Origin: Promethearchaeia archaeon
Lineage (GTDB): Archaea > Asgardarchaeota > Lokiarchaeia > Sigyniarchaeales > SOKP01
Direction: 5' to 3'
DNA: 12,301 nt
NCBI GenBank assembly: GCA_029856125.1
Contig: JAHQWJ010000153.1
Span: 1-12,301, forward strand
Numbering within the stretch: position 1 is the first letter of the stretch; each line of letters begins with the position of its first letter. Under the pieces are notes generated by a model that ran no database searches, was not told the DNA's origin, and saw nothing but the letters and a program-made list of their open reading frames with translations. Below are positions 171 to 12,207 of this stretch, one piece after another. The position numbers and the translations under genes are program-made.

Positions 171-662
171 ATGATTTACTTAGAAGTTAAATTACCAGAT
201 ATTCCGGGAAGCTTAATAGAATTAATTAAACCAATCTCCAAAAATGGGGGGAATATCCATGGTATATTACACCATCACGATAAAAAAATTAATAACACGA
301 TTCCAGTTGATATTTGGTTTGAGTTAAGCGAGGAATTAATCGAAATATCGCTAGAAAACATAAAAAAAGAGTTAATTGAAAAAAATATACAACTTACGAA
401 GATTTCAGTAGGCTCTAAAAATAAAATTTTAACTTTTATATTAACTGGGCATGTTTTTGATACAGATATAACGAATACAATTAAAAGGTTGGATTCAAAG
501 AACATTAAAGTTCTTGAATTACACGCTAAATTTACTGAAGTTAATGAAATAAGTAGTGTGTTAATGAAAGTAGAATTTCCTGAAGTTATGACAAAATTCG
601 AATTAATTGATGAAATTGAAAAGATATGTGAAGAGAAGAATCTCTTTTTGATACGATCTTAA
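171..662 (+). CDS. ACT-domain protein, predicted allosteric regulatory partner of homoserine dehydrogenase (COG2061-like)
   Basis: The N-terminal ACT signature LPDIPGSL...ISKNGGNIHGILH is followed by a second half with ILTGHVFDTDITNTI and C-terminal EKNLFLI. This matches the archaeal tandem-ACT family found upstream of hom, and the gene ends 10 bp before hom. Confidence 0.88.
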   Translation: MIYLEVKLPDIPGSLIELIKPISKNGGNIHGILHHHDKKINNTIPVDIWFELSEELIEISLENIKKELIEKNIQLTKISVGSKNKILTFILTGHVFDTDITNTIKRLDSKNIKVLELHAKFTEVNEISSVLMKVEFPEVMTKFELIDEIEKICEEKNLFLIRS

Positions 663-672
663 TAAATTAGTT

Positions 673-1695
673 ATGTGTAAAGGTATGGAAGTAAAAATCT
701 GTTTAATTGGAATGGGAAAAGTTGGAACAAGTTTTCTTCAGTTGTTAAAAGAAAAACGAGATTATATTAGAGTTAACTTTAATTTCAATTGCAAATTAGT
801 TGCGATTTTCGAATACGACGGCGCTCTGATTAATAGCGGAGGAATAGACTTAGACAATATATTGGAGGATCACACTAATTTAAGAAAAAATCAATTTTGG
901 ATGAGTAATGTGAAAGTTCAGGATTTAATATCTACTTTAGATATAGATATATTAATTGAAACCACACCAACTAATCCAACTACTGGAGAACCCGCATTAA
1001 CACACATTACAGAAGCATTAAACAATAATATCAACATAATTTCATCAAATAAAGCACCGTTCTATTTGCAGTACGCTAAAATTCAAAATTTAGCCGAAAA
1101 GATGAATTGTTTCGTAAAATTTGAAGCAACGGTAGCAAGTTGCGTCCCTGCTTTATCTATTAAAGAAAGCCTTATGGGAAATACAATCTCTCGAATTAGA
1201 GCAATATTAAACGGTACAAATAACTATATTCTAAGCCGCATGACAGCTGAAGGAGTTTCTTTTTCAGTAGCTTTAAAAGAGGCGCAAGAGTTAGGATACG
1301 CAGAAACGGATCCAAGCTTAGATATTAATGGTTATGACGCAGCTGGGAAACTAGTAATTTTATCAAACGAGATACTTGGATGGTCAAAATCTATTGAAGA
1401 TGTAAAAATTAAAGGAATTACTAAAATCACGCCACATGCATTAGAACTAGCCAAATTAGATGGTTATGTAATAAAACATCTCGCTATTGCTGAAGATAAT
1501 AACTTAACTGTAGAGCCAAGGTTGGTTAAAAGAGATTCACCTTTAAACATTCAAGGAACCTTAAACCTGATTGAACTTCAAACGAAGCACGCGGGATCCA
1601 TAATTTTAATTGGGAGGGGAGCAGGTGGTTTTGAAGCAGCATCTGCTATATTAAACGATCTTATTAGCATAGTTAAAGAAAAAAAAGGTTTTTGA
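673..1695 (+). CDS. hom: Homoserine dehydrogenase (short form, no fused ACT domain)
   Basis: Motifs seen: Rossmann GMGKVG, SSNKAP, FEATV, ILNGTNNYIL, GYAETDPSLDINGYDAAGKLVIL (catalytic Asp/Lys region) and GRGAGGFEAASAILND. The true start may be ATG 685 (MEVKICLIG). Confidence 0.96.
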   Translation: MCKGMEVKICLIGMGKVGTSFLQLLKEKRDYIRVNFNFNCKLVAIFEYDGALINSGGIDLDNILEDHTNLRKNQFWMSNVKVQDLISTLDIDILIETTPTNPTTGEPALTHITEALNNNINIISSNKAPFYLQYAKIQNLAEKMNCFVKFEATVASCVPALSIKESLMGNTISRIRAILNGTNNYILSRMTAEGVSFSVALKEAQELGYAETDPSLDINGYDAAGKLVILSNEILGWSKSIEDVKIKGITKITPHALELAKLDGYVIKHLAIAEDNNLTVEPRLVKRDSPLNIQGTLNLIELQTKHAGSIILIGRGAGGFEAASAILNDLISIVKEKKGF

Positions 1696-1696
1696 A

Positions 1697-3055
1697 ATGA
1701 GTTTTCACTCCACTAATTATAATTCATCACATGTAGATTTCAAAACTGCTGTTTTACAAGGCCAAGCTATAGACAATGGATTATACATGCTAAATAACAT
1801 TCCAAGACTGACTGATGATACGATTGATTCATTCAAAAACATGGATTTTATTGATATTGCAAATATTGTAATTAGAAAATTCATTGGAAACATTATAGCA
1901 CAAGAGAAGCTTCAGCAAATCGTTAATAATGCCTTAAATTTTAAAATACCTATAGAAAAGATTACTAATAATGATTACATGTGTTATTTAGATCGAGGTC
2001 CTACATGTAGCTTCAAAGATTTTGGAGCGAGAACATTAGCAAGAATAATGGAACATTTTCTCGAAGCAGATAACAAGAATATAACAATATTAACTGCGAC
2101 CTCAGGAGATACTGGAGGTGCCGTCGCTCAAGCGTTTTACAAAATGTCTCGAATTAAAGTTGTGGTTTTGTATCCTAAAAACGAAATAAGTGATTTACAA
2201 AGAAAACAAATGACAACGCTAGGAGAAAATGTAGTTGCTTTCGGGATAAATGGTAAATTTGACGATTGCCAAAAGTTAGTAAAAACTGCTTTTTCTGATA
2301 AGGAGTTAAGCCATGTAAATTTGTCATCGGCGAATTCTATAAATTTTGGGAGGTTAATACCTCAAACGCTTTATTATTTCTGGAGTTATTCCAGAATTGT
2401 TGGTAAAAAGAACGAAAAGGTTATATTTTCAGTTCCTTCAGGTAATTTCGGAAATCTCACCGGAGGATTAATAGCTAAGAAAATGGGACTTCCTATAAAG
2501 AGATTTATTTCAGCTGTAAATGAAAACAACGAATTTCCAACATTTCTAAAAACGGGAGTTTATACCAAAGTCGATCCCTCGATAAACTGTATATCTAATG
2601 CTATGAATGTTGGTCATCCTTCAAATCTAGCAAGAATATTTGATCTGTATGGAGGTCAAATAGATGAGAAAGGAGTAATACATAAAGTACCAAATATGGA
2701 AGAACTTCGCAATGATATAATTTCGTATTCCATTAGCGATGAATCAACTAAAGATGCAATAGTTAATTTTTATAATAAATATAAAAAAATAATAGAACCT
2801 CACGGGGCTGTTGGGTGGGCTGCGCTCCAGTTATATCGAAATAGTTATCCGAAGAATAATGATATTAAATCATTAACTTTTGAAACTGCTAATCCTTCAA
2901 AATTTCCTGAAGAAATAATCAAGTTAATCGACATCGTTCCAAAAATGCCATATTCGTTAGAAGTAATACAAGATAAATCCGAATTTCCAAACCCAAAAGA
3001 AATTAACGATTATGCCAACTTTAAGGAATTTTTATTAGAAGAGTTTCAAGGTTAG
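1697..3055 (+). CDS. thrC: Threonine synthase (PLP-dependent, long class II type as in E. coli ThrC and yeast Thr4)
   Basis: Motifs seen: PLP-lysine GPTCSFKDFG, ATSGDTGGA, FDDCQ, SANSINFGRL, SVPSGNFGN and SNAMNVGHPSN. It starts 1 nt after the hom stop, with AGGT at 1686-1689 as a possible RBS. Confidence 0.96.
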   Translation: MSFHSTNYNSSHVDFKTAVLQGQAIDNGLYMLNNIPRLTDDTIDSFKNMDFIDIANIVIRKFIGNIIAQEKLQQIVNNALNFKIPIEKITNNDYMCYLDRGPTCSFKDFGARTLARIMEHFLEADNKNITILTATSGDTGGAVAQAFYKMSRIKVVVLYPKNEISDLQRKQMTTLGENVVAFGINGKFDDCQKLVKTAFSDKELSHVNLSSANSINFGRLIPQTLYYFWSYSRIVGKKNEKVIFSVPSGNFGNLTGGLIAKKMGLPIKRFISAVNENNEFPTFLKTGVYTKVDPSINCISNAMNVGHPSNLARIFDLYGGQIDEKGVIHKVPNMEELRNDIISYSISDESTKDAIVNFYNKYKKIIEPHGAVGWAALQLYRNSYPKNNDIKSLTFETANPSKFPEEIIKLIDIVPKMPYSLEVIQDKSEFPNPKEINDYANFKEFLLEEFQG

Positions 3056-3071
3056 AGCATGTAGTTATAAC

Positions 3072-3683
3072 CTAATCGGAAAATCCTAAATATTTAGAAA
3101 TCAAATCTTTTAATTCATCGTATTCGTTAACAACCGGGAGTTCTGGAAATTGCTCAACCACATTTTTTGGTGGTCTAAACAGAATACCATGTTTTGCTTC
3201 TAACAACATGGATACATCGTTGTACGAATCCCCTGCCGCAATCACTTCGTAATTTAACTTTTTGAAAGCTAAAACTGTCTTTTTTTTCATCTCACTAATA
3301 CGAATTTTATAACCAGTAATTATACCTTCTTCATTTATTTCTAGATTGTGGCAAAAACACATAGGAAAACCCAATTTTTTCATAAAAGGCATTACAAAAT
3401 CAATAAAACTATCAGTTAAAATAACTATTTGGGCTACAGAACGAATGTAATCCAAAAATTCTTTTGCTCCAGGTAATAGATCCATTTTCGAAATAATTTC
3501 CTGTATTTCTTTAAGAGTGATATTATTTTTTTTTAATATTGCGATGCGATTACGCATAAGAACATCATAATCAGAAATATCTCGAGTGGTTAATTTAAGT
3601 TCATCAATTCCAGTAGCTTTACTTACGGCGATCCATACTTCAGGAGTGAAAACACCTTCTAAATCAAAACAGACAATGTACAT
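3072..3683 (-). CDS. thrH: Bifunctional phosphoserine phosphatase / phosphoserine:homoserine phosphotransferase (HAD family, ThrH)
   Basis: CFDLEGVFTPEVW (DxE HAD motif I), TTRDISDYDVLM, CHNLEI and IAAGDSYND..ML.EA..GILF run collinear with Pseudomonas ThrH as recalled. The start was moved from TTG 3716 to ATG 3683 (MYIVCFDLEG), which matches the homolog N-terminus. Confidence 0.93.
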   Translation of the reverse strand: MYIVCFDLEGVFTPEVWIAVSKATGIDELKLTTRDISDYDVLMRNRIAILKKNNITLKEIQEIISKMDLLPGAKEFLDYIRSVAQIVILTDSFIDFVMPFMKKLGFPMCFCHNLEINEEGIITGYKIRISEMKKKTVLAFKKLNYEVIAAGDSYNDVSMLLEAKHGILFRPPKNVVEQFPELPVVNEYDELKDLISKYLGFSD

Positions 3684-3820
3684 AATTACTAAGATAAATA
3701 TCAAGTAGTTTTTCAATTTTTACTTTTTTCAACACGTTTATGATTATTTTCAGATTAGACTCTTAGAAAATCTTAAATGTTTTCTTATTACCAAATAAAT
3801 ATAACACTTGGATTCTCAAT

Positions 3821-3857: not shown

Positions 3858-4739
3858 ATGGATGAGATTTCTAAAGATTATACAGTAGACGAAATGATAA
3901 CAGTTTTAATGGCAAGAGAAGTTCAAGATGATGACATTATGATCGTTGGAGTTGCGACGCCTTGTGTATGGGCGGCTTTTACTTTAGCAAAAATGACGCA
4001 CGCACCAAACGCCATATATCATTATATTATGGGAAATATTTTTGTATTCGAACCTCGGCAAGTTTCTTTACTTTATTTAGAAATGAACACAGCTAGAGCT
4101 TACCGCTTTCAAAATTCCGGGGAATGTACTTTAGAATCCCTTCCTTCGGATAAACTTACTACCATTGAGTTCTTTAGACCAGCACAAGTAGATCAATACG
4201 GTAACACGAATAATATTTGTATTGGAGACTGGACTAACCCAAAAATAAGATTACCGGGTTGTGCTGGGATAGCGGATTTTAGTATGTTCTACGCCCGAGG
4301 ATCTTTTCTATATGCACCTCGTCACGATTCACGAACATTTGTTCCAACCGAAAAGTTGGATTTTGTGTCTGGAGTTGGTTTTCCTGATGGTAAACCTTCT
4401 ATATGTGGCGGAGCAGGGCCACAATGTATGATTTCTAATTTAGCATATATGGATTTTGACGAAAAAACTAAGCGTATGAGGTTAACATCAATCCATCCAG
4501 GCGTTGATTTCGATACCGTTAAAGAATCAACCGGGTTTGAATTGATCATCCCCGAAAAAATTCAAGAGACGAATCCTCCTACAGTAAAAGAAATCAATGT
4601 ATTGAGAAATAAAGTTGATCCCCTAAAAATTAGAAAATTGGAAATACTATCAGGTAAAGAAAGAGAAGAATTACTAAATGAAATCATCCAGAAAGAATTA
4701 GCAATGAAGCAGAGATTTCCAAAACTACTAACTAGTTAA
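3858..4739 (+). CDS. Family I CoA-transferase beta-subunit-like protein (GctB/AibB/IpdB fold)
   Basis: YTVDEM..LMAREV, AQVDQYGNTN..IGDW..PKIRLPG, FDEKTKRMRL.SIHPGV....V.E.TGF.L and R.KVDP run collinear with glutaconate CoA-transferase subunit B as recalled. Confidence 0.88.
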   Translation: MDEISKDYTVDEMITVLMAREVQDDDIMIVGVATPCVWAAFTLAKMTHAPNAIYHYIMGNIFVFEPRQVSLLYLEMNTARAYRFQNSGECTLESLPSDKLTTIEFFRPAQVDQYGNTNNICIGDWTNPKIRLPGCAGIADFSMFYARGSFLYAPRHDSRTFVPTEKLDFVSGVGFPDGKPSICGGAGPQCMISNLAYMDFDEKTKRMRLTSIHPGVDFDTVKESTGFELIIPEKIQETNPPTVKEINVLRNKVDPLKIRKLEILSGKEREELLNEIIQKELAMKQRFPKLLTS

Positions 4740-4885: not shown

Positions 4886-6286
4886 ATGGGAATATCCATA
4901 ACCCTATGCTTGGTTTTCGGATCATTAATAATATCTTCATTTTTATTTTATACACTCGATACACACCAAAAGGGAAAAGAAACTGATATTGGCTATTTCG
5001 CGGAACGTCCAAAGTTAGCGGCAATTCACTTACCAATTTTAATTAACGGTAATGATAATTTTAAGACTCTAGCCGGGTTCGAAGGATGGTTTGGAAATGG
5101 AACGGAAAGTAATCCGTATATTATTGAGAATTATATAATTAATAATACAGTTACGAATTACAATGGGATTGATATTCAGAACACTAGCGTGTATTTTATC
5201 ATTCAAAATGTGACTGTAACTAACGGTACACTCTATGATAACGATGGATTTTTTTTTTACAATGTTTCAAACGGGGAATTGAGGTATAATACTGCTTATA
5301 ATAATACATGTGGTTTTAACCTCCAAAACTCTACTAATAACATCTTGATGGGAAATAACGCTACCAAAAATGATATTGGTTTTAACCTTAATTATTCAAA
5401 CAATAATACTATGATTAACAATAACGCTATTAATGCCAGTAAATATGGTAGTGGGTTCTCTCTCCAATATTCATGTAAAAATATAGTGACGGGCAATGTC
5501 GCTTCTAATTTCAATAATCATGCTGCTGGTTTTAATCTCCAAAACTCTACTAATAATATCTTGACAACTAATACTGCCACTAATAATAGTTATGCTTTCT
5601 CGCTCCATTATTCTAGTAATAATACCTTAACGGGCAATACTGCTACTAATAATGGTGGAGGTTTCTATCTTAATTATTCAAAGAATAATACTCTAAATAG
5701 TAATACCGCCATAAATAATTTTTATGATTTTAGCCTTTGGTATTCAGACTACAACAATTTGACGGATAATACTGCCAAGGATAATTATCAAGGATTCTAT
5801 CTTCATTATTCTGCCAATAACAACTTGATGGACAATTCAGCTACCAATAAATTTGCGGGATTCTCTATTCACTATTATTCCAACAATAATATCTTGGAAG
5901 GCAATAATGCCACCAATAATTATTACGGTTTCGACATTTCTTTCTCTGCTAATAATACCCTGATATGCAATAATGCCACTAATAATGATATTGGTTTTGA
6001 TCTCCTAGAATCTGCCAATAACAACTTAACAGGCAATACAGCCGATAGTAATGAGTATGGTATATATTTAGATCACAGCGATTATAATACCGTTTGTGGA
6101 AATTTTTTGTCGGCTTATAAAAAATGTATTTATGAGGTTGAATGCACCGGGAACATTATTTTTAATAATACTTGTGAAGATCTCGACCGTGAATCTAACG
6201 CTGTGATATCTGGTTATAATATGGTGTTTTTAATTACAGTTATAACTGTTTTTATTGTAATTTTCTTTAAAAAAACGAAACCCTAG
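4886..6286 (+). CDS. Secreted or cell-surface right-handed parallel beta-helix (NosD/PbH1) repeat protein with a Loki-CTERM-like C-terminal sorting signal
   Basis: It has an N-terminal hydrophobic stretch, a GNGTESNPYIIEN motif and about 13 repeats of 22-25 aa (GFxLxxSxNNxLxxNxAxNN). The C-terminus is ISGYN, a hydrophobic helix, then KKTKP. More than 20 N-x-S/T sequons were counted by eye. Confidence 0.88.
   Translation: MGISITLCLVFGSLIISSFLFYTLDTHQKGKETDIGYFAERPKLAAIHLPILINGNDNFKTLAGFEGWFGNGTESNPYIIENYIINNTVTNYNGIDIQNTSVYFIIQNVTVTNGTLYDNDGFFFYNVSNGELRYNTAYNNTCGFNLQNSTNNILMGNNATKNDIGFNLNYSNNNTMINNNAINASKYGSGFSLQYSCKNIVTGNVASNFNNHAAGFNLQNSTNNILTTNTATNNSYAFSLHYSSNNTLTGNTATNNGGGFYLNYSKNNTLNSNTAINNFYDFSLWYSDYNNLTDNTAKDNYQGFYLHYSANNNLMDNSATNKFAGFSIHYYSNNNILEGNNATNNYYGFDISFSANNTLICNNATNNDIGFDLLESANNNLTGNTADSNEYGIYLDHSDYNTVCGNFLSAYKKCIYEVECTGNIIFNNTCEDLDRESNAVISGYNMVFLITVITVFIVIFFKKTKP
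5311..5564 (+). repeat. Intragenic direct repeat, 36/38 nt identical (5311-5348 and 5527-5564)
   Basis: The copies are tggttttaaCctccaaaactctactaataaCatcttga and tggttttaaTctccaaaactctactaataaTatcttga. Both encode GFNLQNSTNNIL, 216 nt apart. Confidence 0.9.
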
Positions 6287-6385: not shown

Positions 6386-7093
6386 TTAGGGATAAATCAA
6401 ATATAATTCGTTAATGCGCCCTTTCTTTTCTAACCTTATATGGTGTTTTTCTAGTAACTTATCAATATGATATTTGATGGAATTACGAGAGAGATTCAGA
6501 ATGCGGGAAATCTCGGCAGAATTAATTCCGGGATATTTCTTAATAGTATCCATTATTTCTAAAGTAGTTTTTGATTTAACAAATTGATTTTTAAATGTTT
6601 CAATTGCTTCTGTCGATGATGTGATAGGAAAATATATAGCATATTGCCCATATTTTTCTTTTTTTATAATGCTATGCTTTAACAGTGTGTCTAAATGCCA
6701 TTGTAATTGTCCTTTATTCAAACTGCAACTTCGAAGTAATTCGTTGTGATGAATACCTGGATTATTGAGGATTTCAGTTAAGATTTTTAATCGTGATTCG
6801 TTTTGAAATATATCCGCAAGAGATAGATAAGATCTACCTTCTTTTATATAACTCCTTCTAATAAAATAATTTCTATATTCTTGTACCGTGAGAGCAGAAA
6901 ATGTTGAAACGAAAATTAGAGTCGGTATTAGAAGGAAGATAACAACCAGTCTTATGGTATTTAAATCACCAAAAAAACTTAGTTCTCTAAATAGATCTAT
7001 TAAAAAACTTAATATAACTATGAGTAAAGCAAGAGAAATAAGAGTCAAACCTAATCTGAAAAAAAAAGAAATTTTTAAATTACGAGATTTCAT
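6386..7093 (-). CDS. Membrane-anchored transcriptional regulator with two winged-HTH domains (COG3398-like)
   Basis: Two N-terminal hydrophobic helices precede FQNESRLKILTEILNNPGIHHNELLRSCSLNKGQLQWHLDTL and a second HTH, IKKYPGINSAEISRILNLSRNSIKYHIDKL. Confidence 0.85.
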   Translation of the reverse strand: MKSRNLKISFFFRLGLTLISLALLIVILSFLIDLFRELSFFGDLNTIRLVVIFLLIPTLIFVSTFSALTVQEYRNYFIRRSYIKEGRSYLSLADIFQNESRLKILTEILNNPGIHHNELLRSCSLNKGQLQWHLDTLLKHSIIKKEKYGQYAIYFPITSSTEAIETFKNQFVKSKTTLEIMDTIKKYPGINSAEISRILNLSRNSIKYHIDKLLEKHHIRLEKKGRINELYLIYP

Positions 7094-7122: not shown

Positions 7123-7695
7123 TCATTTAATTTTAAGGAAAGGAATCATAAAGAATACTTCGTTTGCATATTCTAAGAATTTATCCCCATATTTAGCTTT
7201 TAAGGCAATTTCTTCGATCTTGCCCAAAATAATATAAGCCAGTACTTCGCCAATCCAGATTAAAAAGAGAATTGTATGGCCGTCAATATTATAAAGTATA
7301 AAATCAAATACGGGAGATGTTTGAAAGGCTACTACTGTCATACCCAGAGTCATGATAATGAAAGCTACATACTGAGGATGTCTAATGTACCTATATGGCC
7401 CCGTTCGCATTAATTGTTTTCTATGTGTCAATTGATAAACTACAGTATAAATAAAAAAGATCAAGCCAAGGATTACAATATAAAACCCATGAGATCGCGT
7501 TAAGAATTGAATGTCATAAATGATAATGCCTGGATTCTGGAAATAGAAGGTTAAATAGGTTACTAAAGGCACACTCATAAAACCGAACCATATAGCAGTG
7601 CAAGGAACATATTGGGCTAGTAGTAGTAGATATGAGGAAAGACCCGTAAAGATCGAAATTATCTTAGTTTTAATCTTAGAATTTCTGGAATTCAT
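7123..7695 (-). CDS. Isoprenylcysteine carboxyl methyltransferase / PEMT-family integral membrane methyltransferase
   Basis: It has multiple TM segments, TGPYRYIRHPQY and the C-terminal IEEIALKAKYGDKFLEYANEVFFMIP. AGGTG lies just upstream of the ATG as a possible RBS. Confidence 0.85.
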   Translation of the reverse strand: MNSRNSKIKTKIISIFTGLSSYLLLLAQYVPCTAIWFGFMSVPLVTYLTFYFQNPGIIIYDIQFLTRSHGFYIVILGLIFFIYTVVYQLTHRKQLMRTGPYRYIRHPQYVAFIIMTLGMTVVAFQTSPVFDFILYNIDGHTILFLIWIGEVLAYIILGKIEEIALKAKYGDKFLEYANEVFFMIPFLKIK

Positions 7696-7829: not shown

Positions 7830-8636
7830 TTAATCTAGTTCATCTAATCCTTTGGTTTTTATCGGTGGGCGAGGTGGAGCATGGTAAAATCTTTGCGCAG
7901 GATATCCAAGAACGATTACACCCCAAACTTTACCTTTTACTCCAGCGATTTTTTCTTTAATTTCTTTATTTGAAACTAAAACACCATGAGCTAATCCAAT
8001 CCAGCAGGATCCTAATCCTAAAGATTGAGCACTTAACATTCCACGAGTTAAAGCAATAGTGGCGTTCATGGCGTCACCTGGATTATTTGAATGAATAATT
8101 AATACATGAGGGGCTTGATAAAATATGGCATCAAAACCCATTTCTCTAGCTTTTTTCGCACTTTCACCGTATTTAGCGTTACCTGAAGCAATTAGTACGT
8201 CCATAACCGAATCAGATAATTGCTTAATTGTATTATCATCTGAAATTATTTTACATCTTAAAGTTCGAATATTAGCACCTGTTGGGGCTTGAGTCATAGA
8301 AGCCAAAACTTTTTCCATAACATTTCGAGGAATTTTTTTCTTTTTGTACCTTCTAATCGACCTTTTCGCCGTCATGAAATTATTCAGTGTTTCGTACGAA
8401 ATTAAAGTGCTCGGATCTTGAACTCCTTCAAAAGTCAATACGTCCTCCATATTTTCGTGAAGGATGGCATCCTCTGGACATCTACATCTACAACGATTGC
8501 ATCGACTACATAGATTATCTGGATCGCTGAAAACTATTTTTTTTTGATCTGCGTCAAAACTAAAATAACTTGGGCATTCATTCACACAATTTTTGCAAAG
8601 GTTGCATTTTTCATAATCAATTCCTAAAATAGACAT
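7830..8636 (-). CDS. Nitroreductase-family flavoprotein with an N-terminal 2x[4Fe-4S] ferredoxin domain
   Basis: The ferredoxin motifs are CNLCKNCVNECP and CSRCNRCRCRCP. The nitroreductase motifs are KRSIRRYK, APTGAN, AQSLGLGSCWIG and LGYP. Confidence 0.92.
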   Translation of the reverse strand: MSILGIDYEKCNLCKNCVNECPSYFSFDADQKKIVFSDPDNLCSRCNRCRCRCPEDAILHENMEDVLTFEGVQDPSTLISYETLNNFMTAKRSIRRYKKKKIPRNVMEKVLASMTQAPTGANIRTLRCKIISDDNTIKQLSDSVMDVLIASGNAKYGESAKKAREMGFDAIFYQAPHVLIIHSNNPGDAMNATIALTRGMLSAQSLGLGSCWIGLAHGVLVSNKEIKEKIAGVKGKVWGVIVLGYPAQRFYHAPPRPPIKTKGLDELD

Positions 8637-8840: not shown

Positions 8841-9629
8841 ATGGATGAGAAAAACCAAAAAAACAAAACGATGGAGTTAATAAAAAATAGAAGAACGATT
8901 CGTGCTTACAATCCTAAACCTCTTTCTCAAGATGAAATTGATACAATCGTCCAAGGTGCTATGAGAGCACCTACAGCAGGAAATTTAATGATGTATTCAA
9001 TTATTCAAGTAGCCGATAAGAACTTAAAGGAAAAATTAGTAAAAACTTGCGATAATCAACCACATATCGCAAAAGCACCGTTAGTATTATTGTTTTTAGC
9101 TGACATGCAGCGATGGTGGGATTTCTTTAAATTAAGTAAAGTCAAGGAAAAATGTAACGAAATAGGCAAAGAGTTTCAAACACCTCAAGAATCTGACTTA
9201 CTTCTTGCTTGTTGTGATGCATTAATTGCAGCCCAAAATTCTGTAATCGCCGCTGAAGCGTTAGGCATTGGCTCCTGTTATATCGGAGACATTATGGAAA
9301 ACTATGAAATTCACCGTGAGATGTTTAATCTTCCAAAATGGGTATTTCCTATAACTTTATTATGTTATGGGTACCCGAAAGGAGATAAAAATAAAATTCC
9401 CCTCACGACACGCTTTCCTCAAAAATTTATACAATTCACAGACAAATATTCGAGGTTGAGCGAGAAGGATTTTAATGAGATGTTAAAGGATGAACAGAGA
9501 AAGATCGTAGAAAAAGAAGCAGAAAATATGGGGCAACAACTCTATCTTGGTAAGTTAGGGGCAGATTACTCAGTAGAAATGCGTCGCTCTGTTAAAGCTG
9601 CGCTTAAAGAATGGCTTAAAAAAGATTAG
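8841..9629 (+). CDS. NfsA/Frp-like nitroreductase / NAD(P)H-flavin oxidoreductase
   Basis: Motifs seen: RRTIRAY, APTAGNLMMYSII, NQPHIAKAPLVLLFLAD, DALIAAQNSVIAAEALGIGSCYIG and GYP, plus an NfsA-like C-terminal extension. Confidence 0.9.
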   Translation: MDEKNQKNKTMELIKNRRTIRAYNPKPLSQDEIDTIVQGAMRAPTAGNLMMYSIIQVADKNLKEKLVKTCDNQPHIAKAPLVLLFLADMQRWWDFFKLSKVKEKCNEIGKEFQTPQESDLLLACCDALIAAQNSVIAAEALGIGSCYIGDIMENYEIHREMFNLPKWVFPITLLCYGYPKGDKNKIPLTTRFPQKFIQFTDKYSRLSEKDFNEMLKDEQRKIVEKEAENMGQQLYLGKLGADYSVEMRRSVKAALKEWLKKD

Positions 9630-9659: not shown

Positions 9660-11054
9660 TTATAGACTTATTTCTTTTAGCTTCTCTCTGTTCTCTTTTA
9701 CTTTCTCAGGTGTTAATTTGAAAAATTTCCAGAGAACTATCGTTGAGATGAACATGAAAATCATAGGGAGGAGAGCAAAATGTATTTGAATACCTAATAC
9801 CGCTGTAGGAGTTTGAATGTCGGATGTATCTACGAACCCTGTAATAGTGTGTACTATAGAAAAGCTTAGAGCTTGAGCAACTAAAGATACTCTGCTGACA
9901 AATGTTTGAAATCCTTGATAAATTCCTTCAATTCTCCTACCTGACATAACCACAGATTCATCTATCACAGACGATCTAACTGGAGAGAGCATAACCCAAT
10001 AACCTCCCTCACCCATTCCCCAGATAAACATTGCGATGATCATGAAGATATAATCATTGATAAAGAAAAGCGGTATAGTAACAATGGTTAAGAATGTGGC
10101 AGCAATTACCATTGTCTTTCTGTCGTTATTCGTCTTATTGGCTATCTTACTCCAAATGGGCATCGATATAAACAATCCTATAAGAAGAGCAGCCATTATT
10201 AGCAAAGAATCATCAGCTTTCACGCCTAACACAAATTGTGCTACATATGGGATGGATCCTATCATTGTTGCTACTAAACACATATAAAACATAAAGGAAA
10301 TCACATATGCCATATAGTTCTTGTGTTTTAGGATAGTTTTAAATTCTTTCAAGAATGGCTTTCTTTCCATTCCTTCTTCACAACTCTCTAGGTAACAATC
10401 AATCCTCACTTGATCTTCACGGCTCCCAGGAATAACCGCTACTAGAGCAAGTAAACAGACAATTACAACAACTCCTGCTTGGAGGGTATATGTGCTTCTT
10501 TCCCCAAATACAATAAAAAGACTTGGAATTATCGATCCTGAGGCTAATCCAAGAGCTCCCACTAGAGTACTTAAAGTAGCAGCTAATCTTCGCTCACTAT
10601 CTCCACGAAATTTGTCTGGGAAAATAGAATAATAATTTACTTGAAAGAGCGAAGCAAATGTGTCATATAAACAGGTCATAACTACGAGCCAAATAAATAA
10701 AATGATAGCCCCACTATTTGGATCAACATCTGGAGGAGTAAATAGCAATAAGTAACTTAGTATCCAAGGGATCCCTCCAATTATAACCCATGGAAGTCGC
10801 CTTCCCCATTTTTTTGTAAATTTAAAGGGACGATCCGTTAAAAAACCAATTAAGGGGTCATTCACTGAGTTCCAGATTGCGAAAATAATGAAGCCTATAC
10901 CAGTTAACCAGACATTTAATCCTATTACGGTCTCATAATAAAAAAATACATACGCTCCGAAAGCCATGCCAAAAAATTCGCTTATGTAAGATCCAAAACC
11001 ATAGGAAACCATGTTCTTTTTAGAGTGTTTAATCTCTATCGTTTCTTTTTCCAT
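9660..11054 (-). CDS. MFS transporter, glycoside-pentoside-hexuronide (MelB/MFS_2-like) family
   Basis: It has about 12 hydrophobic segments, with SYGFG, IWNSVNDPLIGFLTDR...WGRRLPW and VIDE...GRRIEGIY. Confidence 0.92.
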   Translation of the reverse strand: MEKETIEIKHSKKNMVSYGFGSYISEFFGMAFGAYVFFYYETVIGLNVWLTGIGFIIFAIWNSVNDPLIGFLTDRPFKFTKKWGRRLPWVIIGGIPWILSYLLLFTPPDVDPNSGAIILFIWLVVMTCLYDTFASLFQVNYYSIFPDKFRGDSERRLAATLSTLVGALGLASGSIIPSLFIVFGERSTYTLQAGVVVIVCLLALVAVIPGSREDQVRIDCYLESCEEGMERKPFLKEFKTILKHKNYMAYVISFMFYMCLVATMIGSIPYVAQFVLGVKADDSLLIMAALLIGLFISMPIWSKIANKTNNDRKTMVIAATFLTIVTIPLFFINDYIFMIIAMFIWGMGEGGYWVMLSPVRSSVIDESVVMSGRRIEGIYQGFQTFVSRVSLVAQALSFSIVHTITGFVDTSDIQTPTAVLGIQIHFALLPMIFMFISTIVLWKFFKLTPEKVKENREKLKEISL

Positions 11055-11235: not shown

Positions 11236-12207
11236 TTACTCTTCTTCAATTTTAAAATTCAGTTTTTCGAAAAGACTGTGAACATTGTCATAAATTCTAA
11301 AGCTGCTATTATCCAAGGCATCATTTACTATTTCCTTAATTTTTTTCTTATTGAGAACTTCTTCTGAGATTAGTTTTTCTACTTTAGTAAAAACCAGTTC
11401 TTTTATCTTGTAATTAAACCTATTTTTTTGCTTTTCTTTTATAGTACCAGATAGTTCAATATGTTCTTTATGGTCCCAAATGTATTGGAGTAAATCGTCT
11501 ACACCTTCACCTTTAATAGCGTTAGTCAATACGACCGGCGGTCTATATCCACTCTGAAATATGGTATCATCGAGCATCATTTCAATTTGGACTGCTATAT
11601 CTTCTCCTCCTAGATCTTTTTTGTTTACATCGTAGATATCTCCAATCTCGATTATACCGGCTTTTTGCATCTGAATGACGTCACCATAACCAGGAACTAA
11701 AATAACTACAACTGTGTAAACTAAATTATAAACATCAAACTCAGCTTGTCCAACTCCCACCGTTTCAATAATGATTATATCGATTCCAAAAGCTTCATAT
11801 AGCATAGTAATGTCGAAAACTGCTCTTGATATCCCACCTTTATAACCTCTTGAAGCAAGGCTACGCATAAAAACGTTAGGATGCAAGGATATATTAGTCA
11901 TCCTAACTCTATCACCTAAGAACGCACCTCCGCTAAAAGGACTCGTTGGATCTACGGATATAATTCCTACAGATTTTCCTTCGTCCAACATTTTTTGAGC
12001 TATGGCACCCGTTAACGTACTTTTTCCCACTCCGGGAGATCCAGTAAACCCAATTATGTAAGATTCGTGTTTTACGCTTTCAAAGTGCTTAAAAACCTCG
12101 TGCGCTCGTTCAGGTTCGTTCTCGATAAGTGTAATTAACCTTGCTAAAGCAATTTTATCCTTTTTTTTAAAATTAGCTATTAAAGTTCCTAAATCATAAC
12201 TCGTCAT
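11236..12207 (-). CDS. meaB: MeaB/ArgK (MMAA-like) G3E GTPase, cobalamin-dependent mutase chaperone
   Basis: Motifs seen: ALARLITLIEN, P-loop GSPGVGKST, VDPTSPFSGGAFLGDRVRM, FMRS, ETVGVGQAE, KAGIIEI and NKKD. Confidence 0.93.
   Translation of the reverse strand: MTSYDLGTLIANFKKKDKIALARLITLIENEPERAHEVFKHFESVKHESYIIGFTGSPGVGKSTLTGAIAQKMLDEGKSVGIISVDPTSPFSGGAFLGDRVRMTNISLHPNVFMRSLASRGYKGGISRAVFDITMLYEAFGIDIIIIETVGVGQAEFDVYNLVYTVVVILVPGYGDVIQMQKAGIIEIGDIYDVNKKDLGGEDIAVQIEMMLDDTIFQSGYRPPVVLTNAIKGEGVDDLLQYIWDHKEHIELSGTIKEKQKNRFNYKIKELVFTKVEKLISEEVLNKKKIKEIVNDALDNSSFRIYDNVHSLFEKLNFKIEEE

Follow-up and report, generated by a model that had tools for sequence, protein, structure and literature searches.

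A ThrH-type phosphotransferase gene beside hom and thrC in Lokiarchaeia as the likely source of O-phosphohomoserine where no other homoserine kinase is detected

ThrH of Pseudomonas aeruginosa is reportedly the subject of the studies Patte 1999 and Singh 2004, and the threonine module of KEGG accepts thrH for the homoserine-phosphorylating step. Here, a thrH gene is described in a 12,301-nucleotide contig of the archaeon Promethearchaeia (Lokiarchaeia; JAHQWJ010000153.1, the whole stretch of DNA that was analyzed, hereafter the window), where it lies beside the genes for homoserine dehydrogenase (hom) and threonine synthase (thrC). Besides acting as a phosphoserine phosphatase, the Pseudomonas enzyme can hand the phosphate of phosphoserine on to homoserine; it lacks ATP-dependent kinase activity and is presumed to form a phospho-enzyme intermediate (PMC1079889). 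It is an isozyme found alongside a true homoserine kinase (ThrB), and its ability to complement was demonstrated upon over-expression (PMC1079889). O-phosphohomoserine can also be made by a non-kinase route through HomK (ThrB2), exemplified by BT2402 of Bacteroides thetaiotaomicron, which rescues E. coli thrB and for which phosphoserine has been suggested as a possible phosphate donor (GapMind 2026 preprint). The same preprint confirmed HomK as an alternative and mentioned ThrH only as a Pseudomonas substitute.

The window is an entire contig of a 3.69-Mb bin (153 contigs, 99.1% complete, 6.15% contamination) and would encode the three final steps of the threonine pathway (hom, thrH and thrC), preceded by a small ACT-like open reading frame (ORF). 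In this genome ThrH is most likely the sole source of O-phosphohomoserine and probably also serves as phosphoserine phosphatase, so that serine and threonine synthesis would be coupled. The cluster consists of the following features (lengths in amino acids, aa).

171..662, plus strand: ACT-like small ORF, 163 aa (PF01842 25.1 bits, under the cut-off of 27)
673..1695, plus strand: hom, homoserine dehydrogenase, 340 aa (NF004912 372 bits; PF00742 184.7 bits)
1697..3055, plus strand: thrC, threonine synthase, long form, 452 aa (TIGR00260 246 bits against a cut-off of 167; PF14821 (Thr_synth_N) and PF00291)
3056..3071, no strand: 16-bp spacer separating the convergent thrC and thrH stop codons (as read in the sequence itself)
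3072..3683, minus strand: thrH, predicted phosphoserine phosphatase / phosphoserine:homoserine phosphotransferase, 203 aa (NF010109, TIGR02137, PDB 1RKU)

The initial annotation had described the ACT-like ORF, hom and thrC as tightly packed and thrH as convergent with thrC, and both statements hold: the plus-strand gaps are 10 bp (ACT-like ORF to hom) and 1 bp (hom to thrC), and the thrC stop TAG (3053-3055) and the minus-strand thrH stop (3072-3074) enclose the 16-bp spacer. The thrH ORF had been listed as 3072-3716 on the minus strand with a TTG start at 3716; because family matches to that ORF begin at residue 12 and all homologues are ~203 aa long, the start is placed at the ATG at 3683 and the TTG is regarded as spurious.

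Judged by its sequence, the window protein is a true ThrH. It exceeded the equivalog cut-offs of both ThrH models (NF010109, 289.4 bits against 133; TIGR02137, 269.8 bits against 223.4) and matched the P. aeruginosa ThrH structure 1RKU with an E value of 4.1e-66 (226 bits), its residues 1-193 aligning gap-free to chain residues 2-194, with 57% identity to this characterized enzyme. Motif I (FDLEGV), the motif III lysine and motif IV (GDSYND) are invariant in nine lokiarchaeial copies, in which D7, E9, K133 and G151-D156 are also identical to 1RKU. Scores were far lower against the phosphoserine phosphatase of M. jannaschii (PDB 1F5S, 31 bits) and the SerB model TIGR00338 (52 bits, cut-off 144). 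The protein is the only ThrH in its genome, and lokiarchaeial homologues are named 'bifunctional phosphoserine phosphatase/homoserine phosphotransferase ThrH' at NCBI.

No thrB had been noticed in the window, and profile searches found none in the whole genome; GHMP ThrB, APH-type ThrB, the phosphoglycerate-mutase-like HomK and SerB were all not found. For GHMP ThrB (TIGR00191, cut-off 168 bits), whose model matched 14 reference genomes and exceeded its cut-off in 11 of them, the best match in the genome reached 30.5 bits and is a mevalonate kinase beside isopentenyl-phosphate kinase. At E <= 0.001, neither HomK (TIGR02535, cut-off 446 bits) nor APH-type ThrB (TIGR00938, cut-off 256 bits) gave a single match in the genome. 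The Desulfovibrio-type homoserine kinase with a shikimate kinase fold (NF040667, cut-off 197 bits) had a best genome match of 78.5 bits; this protein was rejected as a homoserine kinase in view of its 156 bits as a shikimate kinase and of its location ~0.7 kb from aroE. Six GHMP proteins are encoded in the genome, none of them ThrB: mevalonate kinase, an HddA-like sugar kinase, pantoate kinase, beta-RFAP synthase and two without an assigned substrate. For SerB (TIGR00338), nothing in the genome exceeded the cut-off and the best SerB-like match was ThrH itself.

The remainder of the pathway is in place, with two aspartate kinases, Asd (397 bits), a single Hom match and a single match over the TIGR00260 cut-off, the latter two being the window hom and thrC. 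Phosphoserine could be supplied through SerA (562 bits). In addition, a class-V aminotransferase gene lies ~0.5 kb upstream of a short phosphoglycerate dehydrogenase (PGDH)-like gene (G000:C147:61965-64540; L034:1390-2508 and L028:1489-2430). The best model for the former is BhcA (190 bits) and serC_3 matches weakly (80 bits); the latter encodes 313 aa without an ACT domain and also occurs in relatives without ThrH. The aminotransferase is a candidate phosphoserine aminotransferase, which together with the short PGDH may form a second phosphoserine route.

Two further observations were made on the genome (G000). The shikimate kinase mentioned above (G000:C41:5506-6003; L194:1489-2034) is of the bacterial P-loop type in an archaeal host, and the archaeal GHMP-type shikimate kinase had no genome match at its cut-off. 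The ApgM/HomK phosphoglycerate-mutase-like family gave no match in this genome, compared with at least one match (E <= 1e-60) in 123 of 201 Asgard genomes, so that this archaeon must use a different type of phosphoglycerate mutase.

Linkage of thrH with threonine genes extends beyond the window. Adjacent thrH and thrC genes were found in eight genomes (G007, G010, G013, G014, G023, G080, L111 and G035), and the order CoA-transferase, thrH, convergent thrC and hom is kept in the first four of these at 83-96% protein identity, the copy in G007 lying over 180 kb inside its contig (G007:C22). The L111 cluster comes from a bin named Promethearchaeota and lies on a 98.7-kb contig, and in G035, a member of another family, thrC and thrH share a strand with a gap of 36 bp. 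Adjacency of the two genes is conserved within one of the subclades of the genus, and it recurs in two other genera of the same family and in a genome from a different family; a second subclade of the genus lacks it. The linkage is therefore frequent, not universal, and in the window it is positional, not operonic.

The distribution of these genes was examined in a survey of the order (the window genome and 40 relatives, i.e., 25 own-genus genomes and 16 of other genera) and in an even draw of 201 Asgard genomes. Within the order, 13 of the 25 genus genomes have ThrH, as does G035, a genome of another family. Long ThrC accompanied it in 12 and Hom in 11 of these 13 genus genomes, the missing cases being bins of 71-92% completeness, and both proteins were absent from all 12 genus genomes without ThrH, several of which are at least 97% complete. 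Thus, hom, thrC and thrH are gained or lost as a set. No ThrB exceeded its cut-off in any of the 41 genomes, or in any of 40 genomes of the family. Outside the genus, each genome with long ThrC and without ThrH has a HomK-like gene, two scoring 496 and 517 bits (cut-off 446) and four 234-303 bits; a seventh genome with a HomK-like gene (G033) has Hom and a ThrC of 174 bits. Across the order, long ThrC is accompanied by ThrH or by a HomK-like gene, and in no genome by both.

In the phylum-wide draw, ThrH was confined to the family of the window, where it was found in 8/16 genomes of genus g1, 1/10 of g12 and 1/4 of g14, with 0/160 elsewhere. ThrB over its cut-off was present in 15 of the 201 genomes, from four other families, and HomK over its cut-off in 22, ten of which belong to the window's family (genera g13 and g15-g18). 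No genus of the family had both ThrH and HomK; that is, the two are mutually exclusive at the genus level within one family. The initial annotation had suggested a check for anti-correlation between thrH and thrB; ThrH excludes HomK and not ThrB, as the latter is absent from the whole family.

ThrC-like paralogues scoring 150-205 bits on TIGR00260 are kept by ten of the 12 genus genomes without ThrH. The commonest is a pyridoxal-phosphate enzyme of ~478 aa (PRK05638-like, 330 bits against a cut-off of 421; TIGR00260, 150-165 bits), with examples at L081:1204-2616 (G019), L085 and L086, and also at L078, L079 and L083. Other relatives carry PRK08197-like paralogues, and the ~478-aa form is missing from the window's genome. 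These proteins were rejected as the threonine synthase of the pathway, as Hom is absent there and the commonest form stays below the cut-offs of its best models.

ThrH is broad in bacteria. At least 598 ThrH loci were recovered when a single genome of each prokaryote species was scanned, and the best 80 were examined, all but one of which are bacterial, with 50-58% identity to the window protein; the nearest bacterial sequences are from Desulfobacterales and Bacteroidales (52-58%). Among these 80 loci, hom or thrC is next to thrH in 20. In 16 of them thrH follows hom, in Desulfobacterota and in bins titled delta- or Proteobacteria (e.g., L116, Desulfosarcina cetonica); one Bacteroidales genome has thrA-like, thrC and thrH, a second Bacteroidota genome has thrC followed by thrH, and in one spirochaete thrH precedes hom. 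The position of thrH after thrC in Bacteroidales (e.g., L113) is the slot held by HomK in Bacteroides. Neither GHMP ThrB, APH-type ThrB nor HomK exceeded its cut-off in any of 22 ThrH-bearing bacterial genomes, one Acinetobacter among them having a sub-threshold APH-type ThrB match of 194 bits. In many bacteria, therefore, homoserine may be phosphorylated mainly by ThrH.

When 99 sequences were placed in a quick, unrooted maximum-likelihood tree, the 20 lokiarchaeial ThrH proteins formed one clade (SH-aLRT 96) with two subclades, one linked to thrC (97) and one to TYW1 and EngB (90). This clade is joined (81) to one of Desulfobacterota, Bacteroidota and bacteria titled Deltaproteobacteria, and a branch with a support of 96 separates the gammaproteobacterial (Pseudomonas-type) ThrH from them. 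Given that ThrH is broad in bacteria and narrow in archaea, the simplest reading of the tree is a single transfer from bacteria into the ancestor of this lokiarchaeial family, in which thrH would take the place that HomK has in sister genera. The loss of threonine synthesis in some species would then have removed hom, thrC and thrH together.

The initial annotation had proposed ThrH as the main homoserine-phosphorylating enzyme, and the genomic evidence supports this proposal: no known kinase was found, thrH is linked to threonine genes, and HomK is excluded where ThrH occurs. As an enzyme of the HAD-IB subfamily, ThrH would take the phosphate of O-phosphoserine onto the motif I aspartate. Release of this phosphate to water would give serine and phosphate, which is the SerB reaction, and its transfer to homoserine would give serine and O-phosphohomoserine, the substrate of ThrC, so that both roles could arise from one catalytic cycle. 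No ATP would be spent on homoserine, and serine and threonine synthesis would be coupled; the saving of ATP would hold only while the phosphoserine flux for serine is at least as large as the threonine flux, which is plausible.

Phosphotransfer by the lokiarchaeial protein is predicted from its 57% identity to the Pseudomonas enzyme. Several observations weigh against such a role. Because thrH of the window runs toward thrC from the opposite strand, the two are not co-transcribed, and in seven other genus members thrH (54-58% identical) is located between TYW1 and a gene for an EngB-type GTPase, away from hom-thrC, although this subclade still has hom and thrC. The contrast between 13 and 12 genus genomes may reflect few loss events, since relatives are not independent. 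The bin has 6% contamination and 153 contigs. Finally, two GHMP kinases remain as the sole candidate homoserine kinases: one of 419 aa (G000:C84, ~81.7-82.9 kb; L005:871-2130) and one of 367 aa (G000:C143, ~43.3-44.4 kb; L006:877-1980), one of them mevalonate-kinase-like and the other galactokinase-like, neither over a family cut-off.

In an alternative reading that we consider rather unlikely, ThrH would be a phosphoserine phosphatase alone that replaces SerB, and homoserine would be phosphorylated by an unrecognized kinase encoded elsewhere in the genome, for which these two kinases are candidates. This reading is consistent with the lack of a SerB over the cut-off and with proposals in the literature of ThrH as a SerB substitute in Ilumatobacter and Roseburia. 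Homoserine kinase is also often a non-orthologous gap, with thrB missing in 8% of prototrophs (GapMind 2026 preprint). Furthermore, full-length SerA co-occurs with ThrH within the genus (8/13 genomes with ThrH, 1/12 without), a pattern that fits a purely serine-related role equally well and is a further point against a role in threonine synthesis. However, this association is less tight than that of Hom and long ThrC, both of which are entirely absent from the genus genomes without ThrH. A pure SerB substitute also leaves unexplained the co-loss of thrH with hom and thrC and the hom-thrH clusters of bacteria; thrH neighbours thrC in eight genomes from two families and is located within hom or thrC operons in bacteria, and mutual exclusion with HomK is not predicted for a pure serine enzyme. 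Bacterial contamination of the contig, or a recent non-functional acquisition of the cluster by an archaeon that is a threonine auxotroph like many of its relatives, is extremely improbable. In favour of this reading, the bin contamination is 6.15%, the contig is only 12.3 kb long, ThrH is bacterial in type (50-58% identity with copies from bacteria) and hom, thrC and thrH are absent in about half of the genus. Against it, four other species of the genus have the same gene order with proteins 83-96% identical (once deep within a contig, as noted for G007), and so does L111; the lokiarchaeial ThrH clade is diversified (identities down to 54%) and deep, hence not recent; the GC content of the window is 28-37% throughout; and all ORFs are intact.

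With regard to the remaining features of the cluster, the initial calls of hom, thrC and thrH stand, and the ACT label of the first ORF is a weak call, given its sub-threshold PF01842 score. A permissive Pfam scan of this ORF returned nothing besides that match, it belongs to no NCBIfam family, and a PDB search gave chance matches alone (E 0.2-0.4). It is conserved upstream of hom in the Promethearchaeota genome L111 (70% identity) and is probably a regulatory partner of homoserine dehydrogenase. A scan for sigma-70 promoters and hairpin terminators, which is ill-suited to archaea, detected no hairpin terminator in the 16-bp spacer and fewer promoter-like sites than in shuffled sequence. The nearest homologues carry the names Lokiarchaeota or Promethearchaeota. 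Beyond thrH, the window contains the following genes.

3858-4739, plus strand: CoA-transferase-like gene, 293 aa, divergent from thrH (PF01144 38 bits)
4886-6286: NosD-like beta-helix protein
6386-7093: HVO_0163-type double winged-helix regulator
7123-7695: ICMT/PEMT-like methyltransferase
7830-8636 and 8841-9629: two nitroreductase-family genes, one with a 4Fe-4S domain
9660-11054: GPH-family symporter
11236-12207: MeaB-type GTPase

The CoA-transferase-like gene is kept beside thrH in G007, G010, G013, G014, G110, G185 and L111 and has no apparent link to threonine synthesis.

The system described here is a known enzyme in a new host and not a new kind of system. As the lokiarchaeial proteins are already annotated as ThrH at NCBI, the route is not new as an annotation; a literature search found no paper claiming ThrH as the sole homoserine-phosphorylating enzyme of an archaeon, and what the comparative detail adds is the replacement of HomK, the co-loss of three genes and the bacterial origin. 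An apparent gap in threonine synthesis would be closed for part of the Lokiarchaeia. A missing homoserine kinase is frequent in such reconstructions, and the advice of the GapMind authors is not to take it as auxotrophy. Likely threonine prototrophs and likely auxotrophs could be separated within one genus, which should be helpful for media design and for the interpretation of Asgard syntrophy. These data also suggest that ThrH, usually seen as a side-enzyme of Pseudomonas, may be the main route to O-phosphohomoserine in many anaerobes, and they would provide a clear case of a non-homologous enzyme replacing HomK after transfer from bacteria. More tentatively, and with considerable doubt, ATP-independent phosphorylation of homoserine might be the rule in Asgard archaea, in which true ThrB was found in only 15 of the 201 genomes and the others would rely on HomK-type enzymes or on ThrH displacing HomK. 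If HomK also uses phosphoserine, as the GapMind authors speculated, most of the phylum would have a stoichiometric coupling of serine synthesis to threonine synthesis, and the same coupling would apply to many sediment bacteria that have thrH in hom operons and in which no kinase was found.

Compared with ThrH of P. aeruginosa (PDB 1RKU/1RKV), the lokiarchaeial protein has the same length, is collinear over residues 1-193 and shares motif I DLEGV, with Glu in place of the second Asp, as well as GDSYND. It differs in its archaeal host, in the location of thrH beside thrC, in the absence of any other detected homoserine kinase, and in belonging to a clade apart from the gammaproteobacterial one. 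SerB (TIGR00338; M. jannaschii phosphoserine phosphatase) is a member of the same HAD-IB subfamily and shares the first half-reaction on phosphoserine, whereas the window ThrH has D-x-E rather than D-x-D in motif I and a distribution that follows hom and thrC. HomK (TIGR02535) occupies the same slot in the pathway with a phosphoglycerate-mutase-like fold instead of the HAD fold of ThrH, and HomK or HomK-like genes accompany thrC where ThrH is missing, both in sister genera and in other families of the order. The nearest bacterial ThrH sequences are those of the hom-thrH clusters of Desulfobacterales and the thrA-thrC-thrH cluster of Bacteroidales, which form a sister group in the tree and in which thrH is likewise tied to threonine genes; these bacterial clusters are co-directional and operon-like, whereas thrH of the window converges on thrC.

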